The notes under the pieces: model-generated
What the model saw: only the letters and a program-made list of their open reading frames with translations
What the model was told of the DNA's origin: nothing
The model's database searches: none
Assembly (NCBI GenBank): GCA_963782525.1
Contig: CAWAKC010000005.1
Location: 32,001-96,000 of the forward strand
Direction of reading: 5' to 3'
Length of the DNA: 64,000 bases
DNA from: Candidatus Bathyarchaeota archaeon
GTDB lineage: Archaea; Thermoproteota; Bathyarchaeia; Bathyarchaeales; Bathycorpusculaceae
Part shown: piece after piece, positions 4,958-22,671 of the stretch
How positions within the stretch are numbered: the stretch's first letter is position 1
Layout: every line of letters starts with the position of its first letter
Made by a program: the position numbers and the translations under genes

Positions 4958-5326
4958 TTGGCAGGTTACCTCTTCTGAAAAACTATTTGATGCGCTTTAA
5001 TAAACTCGGCGATTTAGCGCTCAACAAACCATTTATGTCTCGTATTCTTTGAGTTTTACCCGTATCTCGACTGGTTTTACTTCTTCCAATCAGTTCGTTG
5101 TTTCCTGCAACTAACCTTTCAAAGGTTTCTAGAATTAAGTGCTTAACCGCCCCGGATTGATTAAGAAAACGGGATTAAAGACGGGCAAGGAAGAAGTTGC
5201 TGCTGCTGATGCAACACCTTTTTGTACCTCGACTATTGCATCTTTCAGAACTAAACCCAAATTAGAATATTGAATTTTCCGAAGGTCTAATTGATTCGCG
5301 CCGGATAGGAGCCAGAGAAGTTGTTG

Positions 5327-5446
5327 TTGTTGTTGCAACTGCTTTCTGCAGACCGGTTGCAACAACAATCAAAGACAAACCCAATTGTAAAATTTGGCCT
5401 AATGAAAGAACAACAACAGCCAAAAAATTCAGCGTGTTGTTGTTCT
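5327..5446. repeat. Two perfect inverted repeats built on TGTTGTTG/CAACAACA
   Basis: TTGTTGTTGCAAC (5327-5339) / GTTGCAACAACAA (5356-5368) and AGAACAACAACA (5407-5418) / TGTTGTTGTTCT (5435-5446); both have 16-nt spacers. Confidence 0.7.
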
Positions 5447-5685
5447 ACCACAGACTTGCCTGCATTCACAAGCAATAAACATACTCATCAACAAAAACGA
5501 CAAACAACTACAGCTACGCCTTCAGCCCTTTATAGAAAGCTGTTTCCTATCAATATTTTATGAAATTCTATCGATACCTTTCCCACTTTTGAATAACAAA
5601 GGAAAAGCCATAACAAATAATGAGAATACTTTTCCTTTAAAAAATGTGATTCAAAACTAACTATCGCACGCTCTACTGATTAAGC

Positions 5686-6060
5686 CTACTCCGTGTCTTC
5701 TTCAAGTTTAACCCAGATTTTTCCAGATTTAATCTTCCAATCATACATAGTTAATTTAAAACCAGGCGCTTCCTCGTACTCACCTATCGTTAAATCGAAT
5801 CGCCAATCATGGCAGGGACAAACAATAACCAAGCCGTCAAGTGTGCCGCCTGATAAACTACATGCCATGTGGGGGCAACGGTTGTTTATAACGAAGATTT
5901 CGCCCTGTTTTTTAATGAATAGAACCGGCGTGCCTTCGACAGAGACGAGTTTCATTTTTCCTTCCTGCAACTCTTTTTCATCTAAGACCGGCACAAAACT
6001 ATTAGGGACTTCCATTTCAGGTACTCCATAAGTCTGATTAATAATTTGCTGAACAGACAT
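5686..6060 (-). CDS. Rieske [2Fe-2S] ferredoxin
   Basis: CPH...CPCH Rieske ligands (NRCPHM; IVCPCHDWRFDL). Confidence 0.9.
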   Translation of the reverse strand: MSVQQIINQTYGVPEMEVPNSFVPVLDEKELQEGKMKLVSVEGTPVLFIKKQGEIFVINNRCPHMACSLSGGTLDGLVIVCPCHDWRFDLTIGEYEEAPGFKLTMYDWKIKSGKIWVKLEEDTE

Positions 6061-6177
6061 TTAGAACTTGCCCATGGTCTCACCCAAAAAACAAAAGTAA
6101 CCCAATCCACAACAAAAAGCTGAAAAACCAACACCGCCAACAATCGAGCACAAAAAAATTTTAAATTGTGTAAACAA

Positions 6178-7806
6178 CTATTTTTCTCTGAACTTCACAA
6201 ACCAAACTGCGCCGCCAACCGCCGACGCCACAACCAAACCAATAATGATAAACAATGAATATTTCACGTAGATGGGCGGTTCATTTACTGTTATGGTTAA
6301 GGGTTCGCTGTCGCATCTCCAGGAACTTTGCGTTTCAGGAACGGTTGCGCTGACAGACCAAGCACCCGAAGAATCAGGCTTAAAGTTGGCTGTAAAATTG
6401 CCATTCTGGGTTACTGTGGCATTTACTGTTTGAGTGGAGTTGCTTGTAGAAAACTGCACCTTGACTTTTGAGTTGTTGTCGTTGGGTGTTATTTTCCCTG
6501 TTATAGTGATGTTTTCGCCGAGGCGTATGGGGTCTTTGATAACGTTGATGTTTAACGTAGGCTGCGCCTTCACTTTGTAGTTGCCTGTTGCCGTCATATT
6601 ATTGTTCAAAACGTCGCATGCATTTATTCGGTACTGCACAATTGAACCAGCCGTTTGTCCTGGAAGAGTAGCGTTGCATGTTTGGTTGCTGATTGCCATG
6701 TCAACGTTGGTGGTACTGGTCCAGTTGTTGGTGGTGTAGGATAGTTGAGCTGTTTGTAAGCTGGCGTTATTGGATAGATAAGAGATTTTTGCTGGGGTCT
6801 CGGGGTAAACTCTTGTTGGAATAACAAGTGGCGTCATCGATGTGTTTCCAAACTGGGTTTTAAGCATGAATTGGATGATTCCGCTACCTACTTCGCCGAT
6901 GAGAACTAAATGGTAGAGGTTTGCGCATGTGTTGGGTGATGTGTAGTTTAGAAACATTGATTTTCCCATGTATTCGCAGCTTGCATAAGCGACGCCTCGG
7001 TACCCGTTGCTTTCAAAATTGTAGCCACCCACCGAACCCGTCAAGTTACCGTACAATCCAGATTCCAGGGGCAATGGAAAAGAGTTTAAAGTGGGTGATT
7101 TAGCGTTGTTCATAAGGTAAAGTCTTGCTTCATACATATCTAGCGTTTGAGGAACATTGACGTACAACTCAACTTTGGATGCGTTGGTGGCGAATTCAAA
7201 GGCCCAGTTTGTGTAGAAACTTGAGTCAGGGCCGCTGGCTCCTTCCATGGGCGTTGTGTACCATTGGTCAGTTTCAAGATTTTCAATAATCATAAATGTT
7301 GCTTGCTGAGCACTTTCGCTGTCGTTGGGGTTATTTATTATGACAAAAGAGTAGTTTCCCGTTTGGGTGGGCGTAAAAAGTGCGTCGTTTACGGTTGTGC
7401 CTAAATGTTCTGGGAGCCCTGCTGCTTCGGTGTGTGTGCTCTCCAAGTTTCCAGATGGATCATAAACGTAGATGTCGTAGTCTGTTTTAGCTTGGGAGGA
7501 TATGTTTATGCAGGCTCCATAAAAGTACACGTGGTAGTTATGGTCTGCTTTTAAGGGGCAGGTGATTGTCCAGTTTGCGCCAATCTGTATTTGAGAATTG
7601 TTTATCATAACAGGGAAGATGGGTTTTTCAATGTAAGTGTAGTTTCCAGAGGCAGAGTTGACGTTGGTATGAACGTAGTTGGTGTATTCTGAGGCGGTGG
7701 TTAACTGTAGAACTGAAGCTTGCGCCAGAAATATAGGGCTGAACGCTAACACTATGATTGTAATCAACGATAGGATTTTTGTTTGGGGATGGGTTTTTGG
7801 GGGCAT
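6178..7806 (-). CDS. Secreted, C-terminally membrane-anchored surface (glyco)protein with Ig-like domains
   Basis: N-terminal signal peptide, Asn/Thr-rich beta sequence with many N-x-S/T sequons, Ig-like C-terminal domain, TM helix plus basic tail. Confidence 0.75.
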   Translation of the reverse strand: MPPKTHPQTKILSLITIIVLAFSPIFLAQASVLQLTTASEYTNYVHTNVNSASGNYTYIEKPIFPVMINNSQIQIGANWTITCPLKADHNYHVYFYGACINISSQAKTDYDIYVYDPSGNLESTHTEAAGLPEHLGTTVNDALFTPTQTGNYSFVIINNPNDSESAQQATFMIIENLETDQWYTTPMEGASGPDSSFYTNWAFEFATNASKVELYVNVPQTLDMYEARLYLMNNAKSPTLNSFPLPLESGLYGNLTGSVGGYNFESNGYRGVAYASCEYMGKSMFLNYTSPNTCANLYHLVLIGEVGSGIIQFMLKTQFGNTSMTPLVIPTRVYPETPAKISYLSNNASLQTAQLSYTTNNWTSTTNVDMAISNQTCNATLPGQTAGSIVQYRINACDVLNNNMTATGNYKVKAQPTLNINVIKDPIRLGENITITGKITPNDNNSKVKVQFSTSNSTQTVNATVTQNGNFTANFKPDSSGAWSVSATVPETQSSWRCDSEPLTITVNEPPIYVKYSLFIIIGLVVASAVGGAVWFVKFREK

Positions 7807-8117
7807 GGATTGCTCAGCTTGCAAGTTCAGTAAACTAAGTGATGCGTGCTAAACAATAATGGTTATGAAGGCTGAATCAATATTTCCACGACGTAATTGA
7901 CCGCCTGCGCTTTTTTGGAGTTTTTTGGGGAAACTTGGCAACTTTAACTATTTTCATTTTGGGTGATTTGGTGATTTTGGGACCTTATTTTTGATTTAGA
8001 TTGGTGAAGTGGCTTTAGCTTATGTAGTTGTGAGCAGAAGAGAGCGTATTGAATCTTGCTACGGAATACATTAATAAGGAATTGTCTGTCTTAACTGCTA
8101 CAGGTGAAAATAATCGC

Positions 8118-8642
8118 ATGAACCGCCTATTAAAAAACCGCCTCGCACTAAGCACAGTCATAACAACACTCATCATTCTAGTTGTATCCATCTTGCTCGC
8201 AAGCGTCCTAACATACTTCGCCATAAACGTAGTCAGCACAAGAGTTCAGGAAGAAAGTTTACACGTTTCTAATCAGCACATCTGGGTCGATCAAACAACA
8301 GGCAGCGCAGTAGGTGCAATAACGATAGCTAATATTGGTGGACGTGACGTAGTCATTAACAAAATTGCTGTACGTGGACAAGCAAGCGCATGGACAAATG
8401 TATACACCAATTCATCAGCTCTTGCCTCTAGCGGCGACATAGATTATGCCGCAGCCGCAGCACAGACAGATTTCACAGTAGCTTCAAAGGATTTGGTGCT
8501 ACCATCAGGTTCAACCATAGGTATAGTGATTACTGCACCAGACAGCATCACCCTCAATGACATCGGCCTAACAGTAAGCATCGGCGTTAACAGTGCTCAA
8601 GCCGTGTACTATAGCGAGACAAACATACAAGCAAACCCATAA
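8118..8642 (+). CDS. Type IV pilin/archaellin-like protein 1 (class III signal peptide)
   Basis: MNRLLKNRLA|LSTVITTLIILVVSILLA basic leader plus hydrophobic helix; AGGTGA Shine-Dalgarno before ATG 8118. Confidence 0.85.
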   Translation: MNRLLKNRLALSTVITTLIILVVSILLASVLTYFAINVVSTRVQEESLHVSNQHIWVDQTTGSAVGAITIANIGGRDVVINKIAVRGQASAWTNVYTNSSALASSGDIDYAAAAAQTDFTVASKDLVLPSGSTIGIVITAPDSITLNDIGLTVSIGVNSAQAVYYSETNIQANP

Positions 8643-9226
8643 AACTCAAAAACATATCCCGAAGACCTCTATTTTTTTATTTTTAATTATTTTTTGTAGA
8701 GTGTATTTTTTTTTACGCACAAGGTTACTTATTCAAAAATAGTGTAATTGCTCTTTCAAGGAGTAAAAAAATAATGAGAAACATAATGAAAAATCGTTTA
8801 GCTCTAAGCACAGTCGTAACAACGCTGATCATTCTCGTAGTTTCAGTGCTACTCGCAGGTGTCGTTACATACTTTGCAATCAACGTAACAAGCACAAGAG
8901 TTCAAGAAGAAAGCCTATCTGTTTCAAACCAGCACCTCTGGGTTTCTGGAACTGATGGTTCTGCAGTAGGCGCAATTACGGTGACTAACACTGGCGGACG
9001 CGACGTAGTCATTAGCAAAATCACTGTACGTGGACAAGCAAGCGCATGGACAAATGTATACACCAATTCATCAGCTCTTGCCTCTAGCGGCGACATAGAT
9101 TATGCCGCAGCCGCAGCACAGACAGATTTCACAGTAGCTTCAAAGGATTTGGTGCTACCATCAGGTTCAACCATAGGTATAGTGATTACTGCACCAGACA
9201 GCATCACCCTCAATGACATCGGCCTA
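8368..9226 (+). repeat. 203-bp perfect direct repeat (8368-8570 = 9024-9226) inside the two pilin genes
   Basis: Compared base by base from CTGTACGTGGACAAG to GACATCGGCCTA with no mismatch; flanks differ. Confidence 0.95.
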
Positions 9227-9298
9227 TCAGTTGCATTCACCGTCTTCACCTCGCAAGCGATGTACTATAAAGAAACAAACATACAAGCAGCGCCATAA
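8774..9298 (+). CDS. Type IV pilin/archaellin-like protein 2
   Basis: MRNIMKNRLA|LSTVVTTLIILVVSVLLAG; paralog of pilin 1; AGGAG Shine-Dalgarno. Confidence 0.88.
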   Translation: MRNIMKNRLALSTVVTTLIILVVSVLLAGVVTYFAINVTSTRVQEESLSVSNQHLWVSGTDGSAVGAITVTNTGGRDVVISKITVRGQASAWTNVYTNSSALASSGDIDYAAAAAQTDFTVASKDLVLPSGSTIGIVITAPDSITLNDIGLSVAFTVFTSQAMYYKETNIQAAP

Positions 9299-9506
9299 TC
9301 ATAGGTTAAAATAAATAACCTAAGAAAAATCCCCCCCCACTTTCTTTTCTCTTTTTAAAAAACTTTTTCAATAACATTAATTATGAGGCAATTTGATTTT
9401 TCACCCAATTTTTCCAAAACAATCTGTCTATTGTTTTACACACAAACGGCTTAATCCAATTTTTCCCATGTATTACAAAATAAGCGTTTATGTGTGAGAG
9501 GATAGC

Positions 9507-10340
9507 ATGAAGGTAAGTTTACGCCATTTCAAGAGATTTGCCCGTTCCAAGTACGCTATGGCCTTACCTGTAACTTTCCTGATTCTATTCGTGTCAACTC
9601 TAAGCATAGTATCATTCACTTACTATTTTTCAGTTGAAAAAATTAATTCACAAGGGCAAACCCTTAAAGTTTCCACATCTAAAGAAAGTCTCATTGCTTT
9701 GAACGATGAAATTATTTCGACTCTGGGGCAGCCTGGGTCCTCAACCACGTTTGATTTGAGCGATTCAGGCGGATTACTAAAAATCCTGCCCAATAGCAAC
9801 GTTCTAACCCTACGCATCAACGGTAACTCAGAGGTTCAAGACACCATCTTTAACATTTCAATCGGCAAAATAATTTATGAACTACCATATTCAAGCACCT
9901 CAGAAACAGGCTTATACCTCGCAGGTGACAGCCGAACAATAACCAACCAAAGCGGATCCTCAACAAGCCAACTTTGCATAGCGCAGGGCTCTGAACACCC
10001 CGAAATCCAGCTGCAATACCGACCAACAGTGACGTATGCAGTTTCGGGCGAAGAAGGCGGCAAAGCAGTCAACAACATACGCGTCTACATCGTTAACCTG
10101 AACTCTTCAATGGAGATAGCGGTGCAGGGTGAGCTTCCACTTCAAATATCCTGCACAAGCACGCAGCTTGAATCGCAAAATTATGCGGTTTCTTATGCAG
10201 TAGGAAACTTAGCGTTAACTTCAGTCTTAAATGGTTCAAGCGGAAGCGTTTCAGTTCCAATTTCAAGCACAAGCGAAGGCGCCATTATTCATATAGAGAC
10301 AGTTGTTTCCAACGTTTCGATCCAGAGGTGGATCCGCTGA
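9507..10340 (+). CDS. Minor pilin-like protein
   Basis: Basic leader RHFKRFARSKYA|MALPVTFLILFV, then Ser-rich beta domain; first gene of the pilus operon. Confidence 0.7.
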   Translation: MKVSLRHFKRFARSKYAMALPVTFLILFVSTLSIVSFTYYFSVEKINSQGQTLKVSTSKESLIALNDEIISTLGQPGSSTTFDLSDSGGLLKILPNSNVLTLRINGNSEVQDTIFNISIGKIIYELPYSSTSETGLYLAGDSRTITNQSGSSTSQLCIAQGSEHPEIQLQYRPTVTYAVSGEEGGKAVNNIRVYIVNLNSSMEIAVQGELPLQISCTSTQLESQNYAVSYAVGNLALTSVLNGSSGSVSVPISSTSEGAIIHIETVVSNVSIQRWIR

Positions 10341-10784
10341 ATGCCTTCGATAATTCCTGGCTACGTATATTCCATTTTTGCTGCCCTTATAGTTGGAGCA
10401 ATCATTGTTTACGCCTGCAGCATCGCCACTTTGAACTTAAAAAACCAAGCAAGTACCCAGCAGCTCAAGAACATCGATGAGTACGTAGCAACCCAAAGCC
10501 TAACACTACTTTCGCACACCACAATAGACAATCAGAACATAACCCAATACCTCGATATTCCTTCATCGATTGGAAACCAACGTTTCTGGATACAAATAAC
10601 CAACGACTCGTCAGGTGCATGGGTTGAATCAGGATTTGGAACAGCAGTTAGTTTAAACAACTTTCAGATGAGTATACCCGCCAACGTTGCGGCGTCAGGC
10701 TCATTTATTAGCGGTTCAGGCAGGGCAAAACTGCAATGCACCTTCGAAAACCAAATTGCAAATTTAACATTAACCAGCGAGTGA
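10341..10784 (+). CDS. Minor pilin-like membrane protein
   Basis: N-terminal hydrophobic helix, amphipathic helix and beta domain; abuts the previous gene. Confidence 0.65.
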   Translation: MPSIIPGYVYSIFAALIVGAIIVYACSIATLNLKNQASTQQLKNIDEYVATQSLTLLSHTTIDNQNITQYLDIPSSIGNQRFWIQITNDSSGAWVESGFGTAVSLNNFQMSIPANVAASGSFISGSGRAKLQCTFENQIANLTLTSE

Positions 10785-10788
10785 TAAA

Positions 10789-12372
10789 ATGAAGCTAGGG
10801 AAAAAGAACAAAGAAGAAATCAAAGAAAAACAAGAAACCCCCGACGAAGAAATGATAGCGTACCTGGGAATTCAAGGCTATCAAGTTCCGGAAGGTTTCA
10901 CGCAAATTGAAAGTTACCCCCTCAATCCGCCTTTCTCTTACGCTTGGATATTCCAGGATGAGTCGGAAGGCAGTTACTTTTACGTCGTTGACGACTTACC
11001 CATGTCGCGAAACGAGCGAGACGCCTACAAACGTTTAAAGAATATTCTTGAATACGAACTAAAAGCTCCACGAATAGATGAGACACTTGTTGATTCATTC
11101 CGTCGGCAGCTCCCAGTCATACTTGAAGACCACAAGGAACCTTTCGGCGACACCAACCAAGTCGGTTTAAGAAAAATCGTATATTACCTCGAAAAAGATT
11201 TGATTGGATACGGAAAAATCGACGGGCTCATCAGCGACCCATACATAGAAGACATAAGTTGCTTGGGCATAAACAAACCCGTCTACATTTACCACAGAAA
11301 ATACGCAAGCACACGCACCAACATAATTTTTAGCGATGAAGAAGAACTTGACGATTTCATAACCCGCGTGGTGCACAGGCAAGGTAAACACGTCAGCATC
11401 GCCCACCCCATAGTTGACTTAACATTGCCTGGAAAACACAGACTCGCCGTATCCTTCGGAAAAGAAACAACCCCAGCAGGAACAAGTTTTACCATAAGAA
11501 AATTCCGCGACGACCCCCTAACAATCGTGGATTTGATAATGAACGAAACCATCGATGAATCCATCGCCGCTTACCTTTGGATGCTGATGGAGAACAAAAT
11601 GTCCGTTATGGTCGTTGGACCTACTGGAGCGGGAAAAACAACAGCGTTAAACGCCATTGCATGTTTGGTGCGACCGGATTTCAAGATGATTTCTGTAGAA
11701 GAAGTGCAGGAAATCAACTTGCCACAGGAAAACTGGGTATCCACGATAGCGCGTACAGGTTTTGGTGGAGACAGCGACGGCGAAGTCACCCTATACGACC
11801 TAATCAAGTCCGCTGTTCGACATAGACCTGCATTGATTCTTGTAGGCGAAATCAGGGGCGAAGAAGCGTACGTGTTATTCCAAGCGTTAGCCACAGGCCA
11901 TGGCGGCTTATGCACTATGCACGCTGACGACGTCGAAACCGTCATTAAACGATTAACTCAGCCGCCCATGAACATTCCCCAGAACATTCTGTCCCTGATG
12001 AACTGCGTTATCGTAGTCAAACAAGTTAACACTGCAAGCATCAACCTTTTGGAACGGAAAAAATCCATGAGAAAATTTGTTAAAGTCTCAGAAATCGACA
12101 GCAACGGCACCCCACATGAAGTATTCAACTGGAACCTATCCTCCGACACTTTCCACCAAGACCTGGAAAAAAGCTACCTCCTCAACAAAATCGCCCAAAA
12201 CCTAGATGCCCCCTTAAGCGTTGTCCAGCAAGAGTTTGAACGCCGAAAACAAATCCTCCTCCGCATGGTTGAACAAAACCTACGCGATTTCCGAAGCGTC
12301 CACAAAGCACTTAACAGCTCTCTTAACTTGCAAGCTTTAGCAGCAGCAAACGAAAAATCAAAGGTGCAATAA
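10789..12372 (+). CDS. Type IV pilus assembly ATPase (PilB/ArlI/VirB11-like)
   Basis: Walker A GPTGAGKT, Asp box VEEVQE, Walker B LVGEIRG, His box TGHGGLCTMHA, FTIRKF. Confidence 0.95.
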   Translation: MKLGKKNKEEIKEKQETPDEEMIAYLGIQGYQVPEGFTQIESYPLNPPFSYAWIFQDESEGSYFYVVDDLPMSRNERDAYKRLKNILEYELKAPRIDETLVDSFRRQLPVILEDHKEPFGDTNQVGLRKIVYYLEKDLIGYGKIDGLISDPYIEDISCLGINKPVYIYHRKYASTRTNIIFSDEEELDDFITRVVHRQGKHVSIAHPIVDLTLPGKHRLAVSFGKETTPAGTSFTIRKFRDDPLTIVDLIMNETIDESIAAYLWMLMENKMSVMVVGPTGAGKTTALNAIACLVRPDFKMISVEEVQEINLPQENWVSTIARTGFGGDSDGEVTLYDLIKSAVRHRPALILVGEIRGEEAYVLFQALATGHGGLCTMHADDVETVIKRLTQPPMNIPQNILSLMNCVIVVKQVNTASINLLERKKSMRKFVKVSEIDSNGTPHEVFNWNLSSDTFHQDLEKSYLLNKIAQNLDAPLSVVQQEFERRKQILLRMVEQNLRDFRSVHKALNSSLNLQALAAANEKSKVQ

Positions 12373-12374
12373 AA

Positions 12375-13883
12375 ATGAAGGCTCCTGGAGGTTTTCTCGG
12401 TAAAATCTTCGGTTTCCTAGATAAAGCTACGAGTGAGGAACGGGAGAAAACTGAGCAGGAACTGCCCTTCGCAGTCATGATTTTTACTCTCATGGCAGCA
12501 AGCGGGATCTCTCCTTATGAAAGCTGGAAAAAAATGCGCCGACTCAGCTTTCTTCCAGCTTTCAAGAAAGAAGCAGACGAAGTTGTGCGTCAAGTTGAGG
12601 TGCTGGGCAAAGACCCACTGACCGTGATGCAACAACGGGGCGAACAGACTCAATCGAAACTATACCGCAACTTCCTCGGCGGCTTTGTTTCCTCAGTCAG
12701 AAGCGGTGGAAAACTGCCGGATTACATGAAAAGCCAGCTGAAATCGATTTTCGAACTCAGATACATCAACTTGAACCGTTCCATCGAAAGGATAGCTGCG
12801 TTAGTTGAAGCTTACTCAGTCATGTTAATCGTTGTTTTATGCACTTACATTCTCTTCGTTGTTTTCTCCTCATCCAGCGTTATGGATTTGATGTCAAGCA
12901 GTTCAATCTCGATTTCCCCAGTCATATCTTACCTGATAGCATTCGTAGCCATGCCAGTTATGTCGGGAATTTTCATATTAATGGCGCATAACATGCAGAG
13001 AAGCGCATTCCCTGACCTCAAAGACCTATACAAAAAAGCATTAATCTTCATAATTCCAGTATTCGCCGTCATAGGCGTTTTCGGAATGATTGGCACAGAC
13101 TTCATCAAACCTATCGGACTACCCGAAATCGCAACCATTGGATTAGTCGCTGCCTCTCTGCCGCTTGCCTACCAATACTACCGCATCTCAAAAATCAACT
13201 ACAATGCCGAAGAATCCATCCCCAGCTTCATCCGAGACATTACAGAATCGCAGAAAACTGGTCTTTCACCAGAAAAAAGTATAGTGCAAGCAACAAAACG
13301 CAAAGATTATGGTCCATTCTCTAAATTCTTGGATTTAATTCGTAGCCAGATCGAATGGGGTATACCTTTGAGACGAACCTTCGATAATATGCGTAAGGAA
13401 ATCCGCAGCTGGTTTGTCATCGTAAACTTTGCCATGATGGTGGAAACAATTGAGGTCGGAGGCAACTCAATTCAATCATTGGAAATTCTCTCGGAGTACA
13501 GCGAGAAGGAAAGGGAGATGCAGGTTAACCGTCGTGCTCTCTTGAAGCCGTACATTCTGTTGGCTTTCATGTGGAGTGCCTTAATTGCTGTTACAACGAC
13601 TATTGTGGCTCTGACCACATCTATGATGACAGGTGTTGTAAGTTCAGACCTTTCTTCAGTTGCCCAGATTGCAATGCAAGGACAACTCAATGTGTTCTCT
13701 GTAGGCATAATTATTCAATGCTGGATTTCCGGGTTCTTCATTGGAAAAATCAGTGAAGGCAATTTTGGCGCAGGATTCAAACACTCCGCTTTGCTGGCAG
13801 CAACCGCTTACCTATCTTTGGTTGTATCTCAAATCTTGCTTTCGGGTATCTTCTCAATGAGTTCAATAAAACCGATGACTTAA
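12375..13883 (+). CDS. Type IV pilus platform protein (PilC/TadC/ArlJ; two T2SSF domains)
   Basis: Two cytoplasmic T2SSF-like segments (ELPF...AASGISP; IPSFIRDITESQKTGLS) and multiple TM helices; directly after the ATPase. Confidence 0.9.
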   Translation: MKAPGGFLGKIFGFLDKATSEEREKTEQELPFAVMIFTLMAASGISPYESWKKMRRLSFLPAFKKEADEVVRQVEVLGKDPLTVMQQRGEQTQSKLYRNFLGGFVSSVRSGGKLPDYMKSQLKSIFELRYINLNRSIERIAALVEAYSVMLIVVLCTYILFVVFSSSSVMDLMSSSSISISPVISYLIAFVAMPVMSGIFILMAHNMQRSAFPDLKDLYKKALIFIIPVFAVIGVFGMIGTDFIKPIGLPEIATIGLVAASLPLAYQYYRISKINYNAEESIPSFIRDITESQKTGLSPEKSIVQATKRKDYGPFSKFLDLIRSQIEWGIPLRRTFDNMRKEIRSWFVIVNFAMMVETIEVGGNSIQSLEILSEYSEKEREMQVNRRALLKPYILLAFMWSALIAVTTTIVALTTSMMTGVVSSDLSSVAQIAMQGQLNVFSVGIIIQCWISGFFIGKISEGNFGAGFKHSALLAATAYLSLVVSQILLSGIFSMSSIKPMT

Positions 13884-13895
13884 GGAGAACAACAG

Positions 13896-14936
13896 TTGCC
13901 GACGAGCTCTTTTGATACCTTCTTCGCATGCACAATCATTGTAGCAGTGGCGCTGATAAGTATGGCTTTTTTGGGCTCAACGATGCAAACCAGAATAGCC
14001 AGTACCCAAGACATCAACAAAGACAGTTACCTAAAAGCCATAGCTGACCACATCTTAACAAACCCGGGGTCGCCAGCAGATTGGGGAACCAACGATGTCT
14101 TGCCCGTTGACTTCGGATTAGCTGCAAGCAACTCCAACAGCGCCTACGAATTAGACATAGACAAAGTCTCTAGATTAAACAACCTCAACAATTTCTCAAT
14201 TTCTTATCCTGAGCTATCAAACGCTGCAAAACTAAACATAGCGTTAGGCATTAAGGTCTCCCAACTCATGACAGTAAATGTGTTGCAATCGAGCAACTCT
14301 ACAGCTGGAAGCAACACCATTTTCACGTTCCAAGTTTCAACGAACATCGACTCAAAGCCGACGAGTGCAAACTTACACTGCTATGTTGCCGCAGACACTT
14401 ATCTAACTGCGGTTAACGCCTCAATTCCCGACACCGGAATTGTCCAAATTACCATCCAAATTCCAACAGCAGAAACCGACAACGCTCTACTCATTACCTT
14501 TGCTCGAGCGTCAATCGATGACCGAATAACCTCATACGCAATCTACAATTTCGCTGACTCAGCGCAGGAGTCAACACCCAGTAGCACAGAGTTGGCTTTA
14601 AGCCAACTTGATTACACCTTAAGCCTCAACGATAGCGTGCCAGGTTTAACAGTTCAAAATGGTTATGTTTTCTCCTATTCATACCCGCAAAACCTCCCAT
14701 CCATAGGAGAGTCACAAACATCTATTCCAAAATTACTCGACAAAAGCCCAATAATTCTGGTTGTCGCAGGTTCCAACGGCACAAACCATTTCCAGGAATG
14801 GACCACTTACCCTCAGGTTCCTTTGAAGGCAGGCGCAAACTTTGGTGGTTCAGAACAGAACATCTTCAGTTACATAGTCACAGTCAACGGTGTCCTCTAT
14901 AGGCTTGATTTAAGTTTAGGAGACCTACCCCAATGA
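13896..14936 (+). CDS. Minor pilin-like / pilus-associated protein
   Basis: N-terminal TM helix, LTNPGSPADW motif; overlaps the next gene (ATGA). Confidence 0.65.
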   Translation: MPTSSFDTFFACTIIVAVALISMAFLGSTMQTRIASTQDINKDSYLKAIADHILTNPGSPADWGTNDVLPVDFGLAASNSNSAYELDIDKVSRLNNLNNFSISYPELSNAAKLNIALGIKVSQLMTVNVLQSSNSTAGSNTIFTFQVSTNIDSKPTSANLHCYVAADTYLTAVNASIPDTGIVQITIQIPTAETDNALLITFARASIDDRITSYAIYNFADSAQESTPSSTELALSQLDYTLSLNDSVPGLTVQNGYVFSYSYPQNLPSIGESQTSIPKLLDKSPIILVVAGSNGTNHFQEWTTYPQVPLKAGANFGGSEQNIFSYIVTVNGVLYRLDLSLGDLPQ

Positions 14937-15355
14937 GGTTGCTTAGCAACAAGAAAGGACAAGTAAGGGTTATAGAAGCATTTTTTGCTTCTATGCTAAT
15001 ATTATCATGTTTAGCGCTCATTCCCGCGCAGGCAGCGCCGAAAAGCTCACAGGTTAACCTCGCCTGGAAAGCCCAAAATATTCTGTTAGCTTTGGACAGC
15101 GACGGTCAACTGGCAAGTCTAGTCGACAATCATGAATGGACAAAACTTGGCGAATGCATCGAATCTGCCCTGCCGCTTACAACATGGTTTAACTTAACAG
15201 TCTACGATAAAAACCAAAACGTTCTAAATGATTTTCCTATTTCTAACGGCGGCTCTGTCAGCGACAGAATCACTTCGGTCAACTACGTTTGCGTCAGCCA
15301 AAACAGCACTTACTCAATCTATGTTTTACAGTTGCAACTGGCGGTGATGGACTAA
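14933..15355 (+). CDS. Minor pilin (class III signal peptide)
   Basis: NKKG|QVRVIEAFFASMLIL. Confidence 0.8.
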   Translation: MRLLSNKKGQVRVIEAFFASMLILSCLALIPAQAAPKSSQVNLAWKAQNILLALDSDGQLASLVDNHEWTKLGECIESALPLTTWFNLTVYDKNQNVLNDFPISNGGSVSDRITSVNYVCVSQNSTYSIYVLQLQLAVMD

Positions 15356-15356
15356 T

Positions 15357-16115
15357 ATGACGAAACGCAATTTTAAATCCGATAAATCTGGTCAAGTGAT
15401 AATCGTTACTGCTTTACTCGTGTCCGCTCTATTGTTGTCCACGGCGCTCTATGTCATCGAGGTTGGGAAAGAAGTGCCAACTATTGACGAAAGCCAAAGC
15501 GATGTTTTCTCAGTTTACAAGCAGTCAACGACGAGTACCCTGATTAGTGCATTAGCGAACGCATCTTGCGGCGGCAATTTAAATGTTTTAGGTGTGGATT
15601 TGGATGCCTTGAAAACAGTGATTCTCTCCAATTCATACCAAGCCCTACTAACTATGGATTACAACACCCTGAACTCGAACAGTTGCCAGAATGGACTGTT
15701 AATTTCTTGGGGCGACAGCGGCTTCGGCATCTCAAGTGCTTGTTCCTCTTTTGTTTTTGCTTCATCAAGCCCCACTGCAACATCTAATTTAGAATACACA
15801 TTAAACGTGACTTCAACTGTTTACTTGAGCGGAAACTACCACCAAATCGACGACACCACAAAACAAGTTAACCTAACATTTACCGTTCAAAACGACGGTA
15901 AAGCAGCGTTAACCCAAAGCTTCAGCGTTTCGTACCGAAATGGAACCGACTGGATACAAGTCAATTCATCAAACACGACAGATTTTGGCAACGGAACATA
16001 CACCGTAACCTTTAGCGCTGAATCCCAAGTCAGCGACCCAATGGCTGTTTCACTACTGTGTCAGGACCAACGAGGAATATTTGTAGGAGCAAACCTTACA
16101 TGCACAAGCACATAA
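15357..16115 (+). CDS. Minor pilin (class III signal peptide)
   Basis: DKSG|QVIIVTALLVSALLL. Confidence 0.78.
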   Translation: MTKRNFKSDKSGQVIIVTALLVSALLLSTALYVIEVGKEVPTIDESQSDVFSVYKQSTTSTLISALANASCGGNLNVLGVDLDALKTVILSNSYQALLTMDYNTLNSNSCQNGLLISWGDSGFGISSACSSFVFASSSPTATSNLEYTLNVTSTVYLSGNYHQIDDTTKQVNLTFTVQNDGKAALTQSFSVSYRNGTDWIQVNSSNTTDFGNGTYTVTFSAESQVSDPMAVSLLCQDQRGIFVGANLTCTST

Positions 16116-16149: not shown

Positions 16150-17490
16150 GTGAATCAATCTAAAACCGTAAAAATAATCGTGACGCTACTCGCAATCCTA
16201 ATTATTTTAACAATAAGTTTTAGTGCAGCTCAAACCCCCACCCCCCTAAAAGTCAGTGACGGCACCGAAATGAGCGTATTACCTGCCAACCTAATTTGGG
16301 ACAAAACCTATGGCGGGCCATCTGACGACCGCGCATTTTTTGCTGTGCCTGCAGGAGATGGTTATTTGGTTGTCGGTTCAACCAGGTCGATTGTGGTAAA
16401 CACGACTGTCGGCTGGGTTTTAAAGCTCGACGAAAACGGCAATGAGGTGTGGAATAAAACCTTCCTCGAAGGCTTTGGTATGGAGCTCCGGTATGCTGTA
16501 AATTTAACTGATGGTTTCCTGCTTGTAGGCAACCAGTTCTTGGCGTCAGGAGACGTCAACGGCTATGTTGCAAAAATAGATGACGAAGGTAACTTGTTAT
16601 GGCAGACTTTCTTGGATGGGGGAAGCGTCAACAAACTCTTCTCAGGGATCGTCACATCAGACGGATTTGCAGTTTTCGGGTTAACCCAATCCAATGACAA
16701 CAATCCATCGGCTGCCTGGGTCGTCAAATTAAACGATGATGGAAACGTTGTTTGGAGCGGAACCTATGGGCAACCAAACGAAACTGCCCTAAGATCAGGA
16801 GTTTTAGCTCAAGACGGCGATTACGTCGTTGCAGGCTACATAGATTTACCTAACGTCAACAACTATGACTTCTACTTATTGAAAATTCACCCTGACGGCA
16901 GCTTAGTTTGGAATAAAACCTACGGCGGAGTACAGAGCGAAAAAGCATATTCGATGACCAAAGCTGCTGATGGATACGTTTTAGTTGGTGAGGTTGAGTC
17001 TCAAATCACGTCAACCGATGCTTGGGTTTTAAAAGTTGACGAGAACGGAAATAAAATTTGGGATATAACTTTGGGTGGCAAAGAAGCCGATTCCCCCGCA
17101 TACGTAACTCAGTCGAAAGATGGCGGCTATTTGGTTGCTGGTTTCACTTTCTCTTTTGGAGCAGTAAACCGAGATTTTTGGCTCTTCAAAATAAGCGACC
17201 AAGGACAAGTCCTCTTTAGTTGTACTCAAGGCGACGCTGGTTACCAAGAAGCTTACGGCGTCATCGAAACAAAGCACAATTCGTATGTTATGGTAGGCTG
17301 GACGGATCCACTTGGTCAGCCTGCTTTAATCGGTAAAAAAATGTATGATTTCTATATAACAGAACTCACACTACAGAAAGGCGTGGGAGCTTCGAGTCTT
17401 CCTCTGACAGATTATGCGGTAATAATTATTCCCATTTTGGCTGTAATTTCGCTTTTGCTCTTTAACTTCGCACTAAAAGTGAAAAAATAG
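16150..17490 (+). CDS. Secreted, membrane-anchored beta-propeller repeat protein (possible adhesin)
   Basis: Repeated WxKTYGG...DGYxxxG...WVLKxDxxG blades, signal peptide, C-terminal TM helix. Confidence 0.8.
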   Translation: MNQSKTVKIIVTLLAILIILTISFSAAQTPTPLKVSDGTEMSVLPANLIWDKTYGGPSDDRAFFAVPAGDGYLVVGSTRSIVVNTTVGWVLKLDENGNEVWNKTFLEGFGMELRYAVNLTDGFLLVGNQFLASGDVNGYVAKIDDEGNLLWQTFLDGGSVNKLFSGIVTSDGFAVFGLTQSNDNNPSAAWVVKLNDDGNVVWSGTYGQPNETALRSGVLAQDGDYVVAGYIDLPNVNNYDFYLLKIHPDGSLVWNKTYGGVQSEKAYSMTKAADGYVLVGEVESQITSTDAWVLKVDENGNKIWDITLGGKEADSPAYVTQSKDGGYLVAGFTFSFGAVNRDFWLFKISDQGQVLFSCTQGDAGYQEAYGVIETKHNSYVMVGWTDPLGQPALIGKKMYDFYITELTLQKGVGASSLPLTDYAVIIIPILAVISLLLFNFALKVKK

Positions 17491-22218: not shown

Positions 22219-22671
22219 TTAGGGCCCTGGTGCAGTGGCTACAGTGGCTTGTACCAGTGTCTGAGTGAAGTATGTGGCTTGGCTTGTGGAAATTACTATG
22301 GTGACAGGGCGTCCTATGTCGTCTACATTAATAAAGTTTCCAGTGAACTCTACGGTTAAAGTTGTTTCCGCTCCTTTTGCAAGGCCAGTTGTGCTGATGT
22401 CGGGTGCGCTTGTGTAATTGAGTTTTTCTCCTTTGATTATTACTTGGTTAACCATGATGGATGTTGGGCCCGTGTTCTTGATTGTAATGGAGGCTTGGGT
22501 TGTATCCATTGTTGTTCCTGAAATGTAGAGGCTTTCTTTTTGGACTTGGTTAGCGGTTACGGTTGTGGCATAGAGTACCACCGTTGTCGACAGAATAACG
22601 GCTGCCAACAAAATAATAAGATTGCCAACGGGTGCACCTAACCCACGTTTATTCTTTAGGAATCTTATCAT
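22219..22671 (-). CDS. Third, unlinked paralog of pilins 1 and 2
   Basis: KNKRG|LGAPVGNLIILLAAVIL; shares VQxESL, NTG, DIG and TSQA.Y motifs with pilins 1/2. Confidence 0.82.
   Translation of the reverse strand: MIRFLKNKRGLGAPVGNLIILLAAVILSTTVVLYATTVTANQVQKESLYISGTTMDTTQASITIKNTGPTSIMVNQVIIKGEKLNYTSAPDISTTGLAKGAETTLTVEFTGNFINVDDIGRPVTIVISTSQATYFTQTLVQATVATAPGP

Follow-up and report, generated by a model that had tools for sequence, protein, structure and literature searches.

The pilE/pilS system of Neisseria comprises many silent, promoterless partial cassettes and a G-quadruplex (G4)-forming element, and it switches at high frequency. Bathyarchaeota are uncultured and environmentally abundant archaea, and we know of no pilus biology for this lineage. 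We analysed a stretch of 64,000 nucleotides (nt) from a Candidatus Bathyarchaeota archaeon (assembly GCA_963782525.1, contig CAWAKC010000005.1, positions 32,001–96,000; hereafter the window), in which two tandem pilin genes, A and B, carry an identical tract in the region encoding the middle of the pilin head. Interlocus gene conversion between the two paralogs explains this tract with a probability that we put at roughly 0.88. Among described systems, the tandem flagellin genes flaA/flaB of Campylobacter appear to be the closest analogue. The available part of PMC5126078 reports intragenomic recombination and concerted evolution for this pair (Meinersmann and Hiett 2000; Harrington et al. 1997; Wassenaar et al. 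1995) and names immunity or phage escape as proposed benefits. As far as described there, both cases would involve tandem surface-filament paralogs (both expressed in Campylobacter) that exchange internal segments by homologous recombination; unlike the bacterial flagellins, which are homogenised over most of their length, the archaeal pilins keep distinct scaffolds (synonymous divergence, dS, about 1) and have only the mid-head in common. In the lpl cluster of Staphylococcus aureus, recombination at conserved segments shuffles variable regions, according to the available portion of Tsuru and Kobayashi (2008, PMC2568036). That cluster likewise consists of tandem surface-protein paralogs in which intragenic recombination has left incongruent part-phylogenies within one open reading frame (ORF), but there a central conserved crossover site allows variable ends to be shuffled, whereas here the ends are conserved or paralog-specific and it is the variable centre that is exchanged. 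With Neisseria, whose pilin antigenic variation is mentioned in the available parts of PMC4877100 and PMC5422504, the locus would share a non-reciprocal transfer of head-coding sequence that leaves the N-terminal helix region constant.

Among archaea, the locus resembles the Aap/Ups systems of Sulfolobales (AapA/AapB, UpsA/UpsB; structures 8q30, 6w8x, 6nav) in pilins with an N-terminal helix and an immunoglobulin (Ig)-like head and in an operon of two pilins, an ATPase and a platform protein. It differs from them in gene order and accessory genes, and the match to UpsA (NCBIfam NF046073) reached 23 bits against a cut-off of 130 and covered the N-terminal region only. A classification of archaeal type IV filaments lists simple Aap-like systems in Bathyarchaeota (PMC13705601); in its available text the term 'gene conversion' occurs 0 times, and no conversion between Aap/Ups pilins is mentioned. 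Our literature search (supplements outside its scope) returned no paper that treats gene conversion among the pilins or archaellins of archaea, and Bathyarchaeota pilins were covered for presence and classification only; a Halobacterium paper touches on gene conversion solely in connection with polyploidy. The first-pass annotation of this DNA, made from the sequence alone, was not aware of a description of the process in this lineage, and we likewise found nothing in print.

An identical mid-head tract between diverged flanks

Positions 8368–8570 in gene A and 9024–9226 in gene B are exactly identical over 203 nt, the longest identical run at the offset of 656 nt that separates them; similarity at this offset is confined to the coding regions and absent from the spacer between the genes. 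The tract spans codon 84 (positions 2–3) to codon 151 of both 174-codon ORFs, and all 90 differences between A and B in 522 nt fall in the 319 nt of flanking sequence, which is 71.8% identical. Synonymous and nonsynonymous (dN) divergence, calculated by the Nei-Gojobori method, changes abruptly along the gene. The 5' flank (codons 1–83) has a dS of 1.08, a dN of 0.18 and 37 third-position differences in 83 codons, the tract (codons 84–151) a dS of 0, a dN of 0.007 and 0/68 third-position differences, and the 3' flank (codons 152–174) a dS of 0.73, a dN of 0.38 and 9/23 third-position differences. The dN of the tract segment stems from a single change in codon 84, just before the tract. These values bear out what the first-pass annotation had read from the letters, namely identity of the two segments including third positions, N-terminal helices that are near-identical as protein yet differ at many synonymous sites, and 3' ends that differ again. 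When the 90 differences were placed at random, a difference-free run of at least 203 nt arose in 0/20000 permutations (mean longest run 26, maximum 77), and the analytic bound on such a run is P <= 10^-19.8. Gene conversion is expected to leave an identity tract between diverged flanks, beyond chance, and a tract that groups by genome while its flanks group by locus; the first of these patterns is thus present.

In an AlphaFold model of pilin B, tract residues 84–151 correspond to the end of strand 3, strand 4, a variable loop with a short helix, and strands 5–6, and the tract ends at a conserved PDSITLNDIGL motif. The loop with the short helix is modelled with the lowest confidence in the head, and its length varies across the family. 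On this model, the tract would make up the middle of the head and not the whole head or the whole exposed surface. The earlier suggestion that the exposed surface of the two pilins had been homogenised or swapped therefore holds as to the head region, but only for its middle.

A search of 41 genomes from the genus and order with pilin B gave matches in 25, and a 1181-nt DNA query matched 63 of 120 genomes of the genus. From 64 loci, 116 intact pilin ORFs were recovered in 61 genomes, while three loci gave none. The usual state is a tandem pair of an upstream gene with an A scaffold (...NVVSTRVQ..., ...AVYYSE...) and a downstream gene with a B scaffold (...NVTSTRVQ..., ...AMYYKE...). In the studied genome (G000; other G-numbers denote genomes of relatives and L-numbers their loci), gene A has the A-type scaffold (N-terminal ...ASVLTYFAINVVSTRVQ..., C-terminal ...SAQAVYYSETNIQ...) and gene B the B-type scaffold (...AGVVTYFAINVTSTRVQ..., ...TSQAMYYKETNIQ...). 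Interrupted pilin copies with stops or frameshifts were seen at L047 (G010), L045 (G011), L046 (G118), and L051 (G108); they could be pseudogenes or assembly indel errors.

Trees were calculated for 31 genes, drawn from the 16 genomes closest to G000, separately for the joined 5' and 3' flanks (322 columns) and for the head (236 columns). A lies upstream of B in 13/13 of the tree genomes holding both. The flank tree separates A from B with support of 100/100 and groups G000_A with G093_A and G129_A (100/93) and G000_B with G093_B (100/97). In the head tree, G000_A is identical to G000_B, and the two copies of G093 (99/97) and of G047 (100/100) pair with each other. The A/B label changes 8 times on the head tree (at least 6 of them forced by starred branches) versus once on the flank tree, and a single clade of A heads was rejected by the approximately unbiased (AU) test (p = 0.0002). 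The tract thus groups by genome and the flanks by locus position, which is the outcome that the first-pass annotation had predicted for such trees and the second pattern expected of gene conversion.

Recurrence, direction and mosaics among relatives

Site patterns in G000 and G093 mirror the trees. Within the tract, 17 sites separate the two genomes with both copies alike, 0 separate the loci and 4 are singletons; the corresponding numbers in the flanks are 3, 51, and 43. At L042 (G093), the sole 4 differences between the A and B tracts are clustered within 13 nt at gene nt 370–382, which may represent an interrupted conversion tract or a minor second patch. Comparison with the B copies of G129, used as outgroup, assigns 4 of the 17 genome-separating tract sites to change in G000 and 8 to change in G093 and leaves 5 ambiguous; every derived state is shared by the A and B copies of the genome in which it arose. 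This sharing requires that the lineages of G000 and G093 each underwent one conversion or more. The 5' boundary of the tract lies after gene nt 250 in both genomes, and G000 and G093 have their 3' boundaries at nt 454 and nt 459, respectively. These positions would fit an ancestral tract that both genomes inherited and that stayed homogeneous inside an island of identity, or else a preferred pair of end points. Trees and site patterns together agree with the initial reading of a recent non-reciprocal exchange that homogenised the head of two old paralogs, i.e. concerted evolution.

The direction of conversion in G000 and G093 was probably from B to A, because their heads are sister to the G129 B heads in the head tree (96/92) and the G000 tract has fewer differences from G129_B (41) than from G129_A (66). 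In G047, the homogenised segment extends over about nt 205–411 (G000 coordinates) and retains roughly 16 differences over some 250 columns. The head tree places the G047 head within the A-type heads, and the direction there would therefore be A to B. G047 thus underwent an independent, older conversion with other boundaries, probably in the opposite direction.

We propose that the major subunit of an Aap/Ups-like archaeal type IV pilus is encoded here by two old paralogs, A and B, each specific to its position. Homologous recombination between misaligned tandem copies 656 bp apart, on one chromosome or between sister copies, would have copied the mid-head coding region onto the other gene, probably from B to A, with the donor unaltered and without crossover on resolution. 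The N-terminal helix specific to each paralog, the initial strands of the head and its two final strands would have been left untouched. Conversion recurred in the lineages of G000 and G093 and, separately, in G047. A single unequal crossover was rejected as an explanation, as it would fuse A with B and alter the copy number instead of producing an A-head(B)-A mosaic.

To place these cases within the genus, we compared head and flank identity in 29 A/B pairs from 24 genomes, with labels taken from a short motif and not tree-checked for distant genomes; 10 further pairs from 5 genomes (G099, G100, G105, G111, G120) were dropped as they lacked the anchor motif. Head identity exceeds that of both flanks only in G000 (1.00 versus 0.73 and 0.67), G093 (0.98), and G047 (0.89), with G097 marginal (0.72 versus 0.70 and 0.59). 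The head is the most diverged part of the pair in the remaining surveyed genomes (0.37–0.67), and head types are found on either scaffold across the genus. Tandem duplicates of the B type are 100% identical at L029 (G024), L013 (G040), and L085 (G131) and 99% identical at L061 (G069), in each case adjoining a diverged A-type gene. Eight other genomes (G003, G105, G111, G123, G127, G129, G114, G132) carry B duplicates with identical ends and a diverged mid-head. Recent B duplicates are located at 2157–2672 and 2854–3375 of L043 (G129) and at 2212–2724 and 2937–3449 of L050 (G114). Between the two in G129 (G129_2/3), 37 of 46 differences, including indels, fall in gene nt 285–354, a patch that sits inside the segment identical in G000. 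In both G129 and G114, the mid-head patch looks like a replacement rather than an accumulation of point mutations. Mosaics of these other kinds are common in this pilin family.

Alternative explanations and possible meaning

The pilin block itself has probably moved between lineages. Between roughly 8208, near codon 31 of A, and 9298, where B ends, it is 90–94% identical to L042 of G093, whereas outside the block identity between the two genomes drops to 67% in the upstream gene and to 80% in genes 3 and 4. Their dS is 0.117 in the 5' flank of B and 0.156 in the tract, compared with 0.79 in the 5' flank of A, 0.70 in gene 3, and 1.20 in gene 4 (0.12–0.16 for the block versus 0.70 to saturated for neighbouring genes), and in gene 3 G093 is no closer to G000 than G129, G114 or G118 are. 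Homologous recombination probably exchanged the block between the lineages after their genomes had diverged. With inter-lineage exchange acting on the locus, both head segments of G000 might have come from another lineage instead of being copied within the genome. An imported block would, however, already have to hold two identical tracts, which merely shifts the conversion to the donor lineage, and the 4 (G000) and 8 (G093) derived substitutions that became common to both copies after the blocks separated require intragenomic copying; we regard import in place of conversion as very unlikely. More improbable still is programmed cassette-type variation like that of Neisseria, with frequent transfer of heads into an expression locus, for example in response to viruses. 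Such a system would agree with a converted segment that includes the most variable loop of the family, with head types that occur on both scaffolds, and with recent duplicates in relatives that differ mainly in a mid-head patch. In contrast to pilE/pilS, the genome (2.87 Mb in 12 contigs, 95.8% complete) holds the tract in two copies only, and the search for silent partial copies that the first-pass annotation had suggested (blastn with word size 7 and tblastn, whole genome) found no silent or partial cassettes, its matches being confined to the two genes and a distant paralog. Both A and B are full-length, with start codon, ribosome-binding site, and signal peptide, and neither looks silent. 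No G4 motif was detected on either strand in 5001–14000 (regex scan, 0 hits), no recombinase or reverse-transcriptase domain in 23 ORFs scanned within 1–24.7 kb, and no Rfam match at E <= 1 in 7000–10500, i.e. no RNA element there that would explain the nucleotide conservation; the inverted repeats in 7000–11000 are two and weak. Moreover, homogenised A/B heads in only 3–4 of 24 genomes fit sporadic events on an evolutionary time scale. The initial framing as a 'gene-conversion system' or as Neisseria-like cassette variation therefore finds no support. A diversity-generating retroelement, which would have a reverse transcriptase as well as template and variable repeats differing at adenines, was likewise rejected, as the copies are identical and the 23 scanned ORFs encode no reverse-transcriptase domain.

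Several points weigh against interlocus gene conversion as we describe it, or against parts of that account. Only 31 of the 116 recovered pilin ORFs entered the trees, the other 85 being left out, and the number of label changes on the head tree may be inflated by alignment error among distant heads. The B-to-A direction was derived from one outgroup genome (G129) in a hypervariable, indel-rich region, and the AU test against a clade of the G000, G093, and G129 A heads gave only p = 0.03, for a group that was named after inspection of the alignment. Import between lineages blurs the number of strictly intragenomic events, and the conversions in G000 and G093 are to be counted from the separation of the two blocks, not from the species split; the shared derived sites still call for intragenomic conversion. 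All genomes were assembled from metagenomes, and consensus polishing could sharpen near identity, as in G093 with its 4 differences, into exact identity. A 203-nt tract also exceeds typical k-mers, so that truly different or merely similar heads might have been made identical by an assembler or a consensus step. Support from reads, assessed with Logan contigs instead of raw reads, is limited. Contigs from X1, one low-depth run that is possibly the source sample, join the B-left flank to the tract (8872–9053, 0 mismatches), span the whole tract into the B-right flank (9024–9288, 0 mismatches) and join the A-left flank to the tract (8313–8397, 1 mismatch); the junction from the tract to the A-right flank is covered only by a contig with 19 mismatches (8424–8623) and thus lacks an exact independent contig. 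Two further runs (X2, X3) hold sequences about 85–95% identical, with variants at 8369, 8382, 8415, 9025, and 9050 that match G093 alleles, and these belong to relatives and are not variants of the studied strain. Speaking against an artefact, the segment is also homogenised in independently assembled genomes of other species (4 differences in G093, about 16 in G047), both copies carry the G000-specific derived bases, and an artefact would not end at a codon boundary matching that of G093. Together with the X1 contigs, this makes an assembly or polishing artefact unlikely, and we rate it the least probable of the explanations considered.

Interlocus gene conversion, as preferred here, is no new mechanism but a fairly ordinary process in a tandem pair of surface-protein genes, and nothing points to a programmed system. 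Through it, homologous recombination alters the exposed portion of an archaeal pilus subunit and spares the assembly scaffold of each paralog. The scaffolds are kept distinct (dS about 1) although the heads are interchangeable, and this suggests that the helix and the terminal strands, rather than the variable surface, set the tasks of A and B apart. Conversion that is recurrent, confined to the head and two-directional, combined with inter-lineage exchange, may inform how the two pilins divide labour. A possible benefit might be a matched surface on two co-assembling subunits or the spread of a new surface variant. A bolder idea, which we consider rather unlikely, is that the mid-head is a selected, mobile 'surface cassette' that moves in both directions between two distinct, co-expressed scaffolds and also between species. 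If true, a favoured new pilus surface would be installed on both subunits at once and could, for example, escape a pilus-binding virus or change partner recognition, as an evolutionary-scale analogue of antigenic variation that has no need of silent cassettes. For annotation and population genomics, a practical warning is that the heads of pilins in these genomes follow neither species trees nor locus trees.

The pilin operon and its neighbourhood

Archaeal pilins are recognised by a cleavage motif with a positively charged leader, a small residue before the site and a hydrophobic helix of about 20–30 residues. A and B both start with a short basic leader followed by a hydrophobic helix of this kind (M..KNRLA/LSTV(I/V)TTLIILVVS...), and relatives show K-G at the leader site (KNKKG/LSTV). 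Matches to Pfam Pilin_N (PF07790) are just under the curated cut-off of 25.2 bits, with 22.9 bits for A (E 1.6e-4) and 24.9 bits for B (E 3.9e-5). The model of pilin B, built on a 63-sequence alignment, has a mean predicted local distance difference test score of 88.4, an N-terminal helix at residues 2–45 and a beta-sandwich head. Its fold is similar to solved archaeal pilus subunits in a Foldseek comparison with the PDB, which matched 6w8x_A (S. solfataricus pilus, E 5.9e-6, 166 columns), 8q30 (Aap filament, E 1.7e-5, 168 columns), 6w8u (P. arsenaticum pilus, 6.6e-5), and 6nav (S. islandicus pilus, 2.5e-4), with modest template-modelling scores (0.36–0.49) and an unrelated Ig-like copper chaperone at rank 1. 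A sequence search of solved structures with pilin B returned two chance-level matches only (E 0.79 and 1.6). The pilins are associated with genes for an assembly ATPase and a platform protein, and a prepilin peptidase gene (Peptidase_A24, 50.1 bits, above cut-off) is located elsewhere in the genome on contig C6. Because of the near-cut-off Pilin_N matches, the modelled fold and its Foldseek matches, the ATPase and platform neighbours and the Peptidase_A24 gene, we read the locus as an archaeal type IV pilus operon with two major-pilin-like genes.

Table 1 Features of the pilin locus (window coordinates)
Feature	Position	Strand	Remarks
Pilin gene A	8118–8642	+	174 aa; pilus operon gene 1; probable conversion recipient
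Conversion tract, A copy	8368–8570	+	Codons 84–151; identical to 9024–9226; dS 0
A-B intergenic spacer	8643–8773	+	Long oligo-T runs after A, GGAG before B; outside the repeat
Pilin gene B	8774–9298	+	174 aa; operon gene 2; probable head-tract donor
Conversion tract, B copy	9024–9226	+	Identical to 8368–8570
Gene 3	9507–10340	+	277 aa; N-terminal hydrophobic segment; no Pfam/NCBIfam match
Gene 4	10341–10784	+	147 aa; N-terminal hydrophobic segment; no significant family match
Pilus assembly ATPase (T2SSE/FlaI-like)	10789–12372	+	Pfam T2SSE 5e-33
Platform membrane protein (T2SSF; UpsF/BasF/FlaJ-like)	12375–13883	+	Pfam T2SSF 7e-21

Shine-Dalgarno-like motifs precede both pilin genes, AGGTGA 8 nt upstream of the ATG of gene A (8118) and GGAG upstream of that of gene B (8774), and the oligo-T runs in the spacer may act as an archaeal terminator (Table 1). 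Gene 3 possibly encodes a minor pilin or an accessory protein. In NCBIfam, the ATPase matched FlaI (345.9 bits) and BasE (238 bits) and the platform protein matched BasF and UpsF, each under its cut-off.

Directly downstream of the platform gene, 13896–16115 (+) and 16150–17490 (+) contain ORFs of 346, 140, and 252 aa without Pfam or NCBIfam match, followed by a gene for a PQQ-like beta-propeller protein; the three ORFs may be accessory parts of the pilus system. A distant pilin-like paralog of 150 aa with 27–29% protein identity to A and B is encoded outside the operon at 22219–22671 (–); it has no family match and takes no part in the conversion. Upstream, a gene at 6178–7824 (–), transcribed divergently from the pilin operon, encodes a protein of 548 aa that has a signal-like N-terminus, numerous N-x-S/T sequons, weak matches to Ig-like domains and a C-terminal membrane anchor. 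This gene is the most divergent of the neighbourhood, with 67–76% nucleotide identity to relatives.

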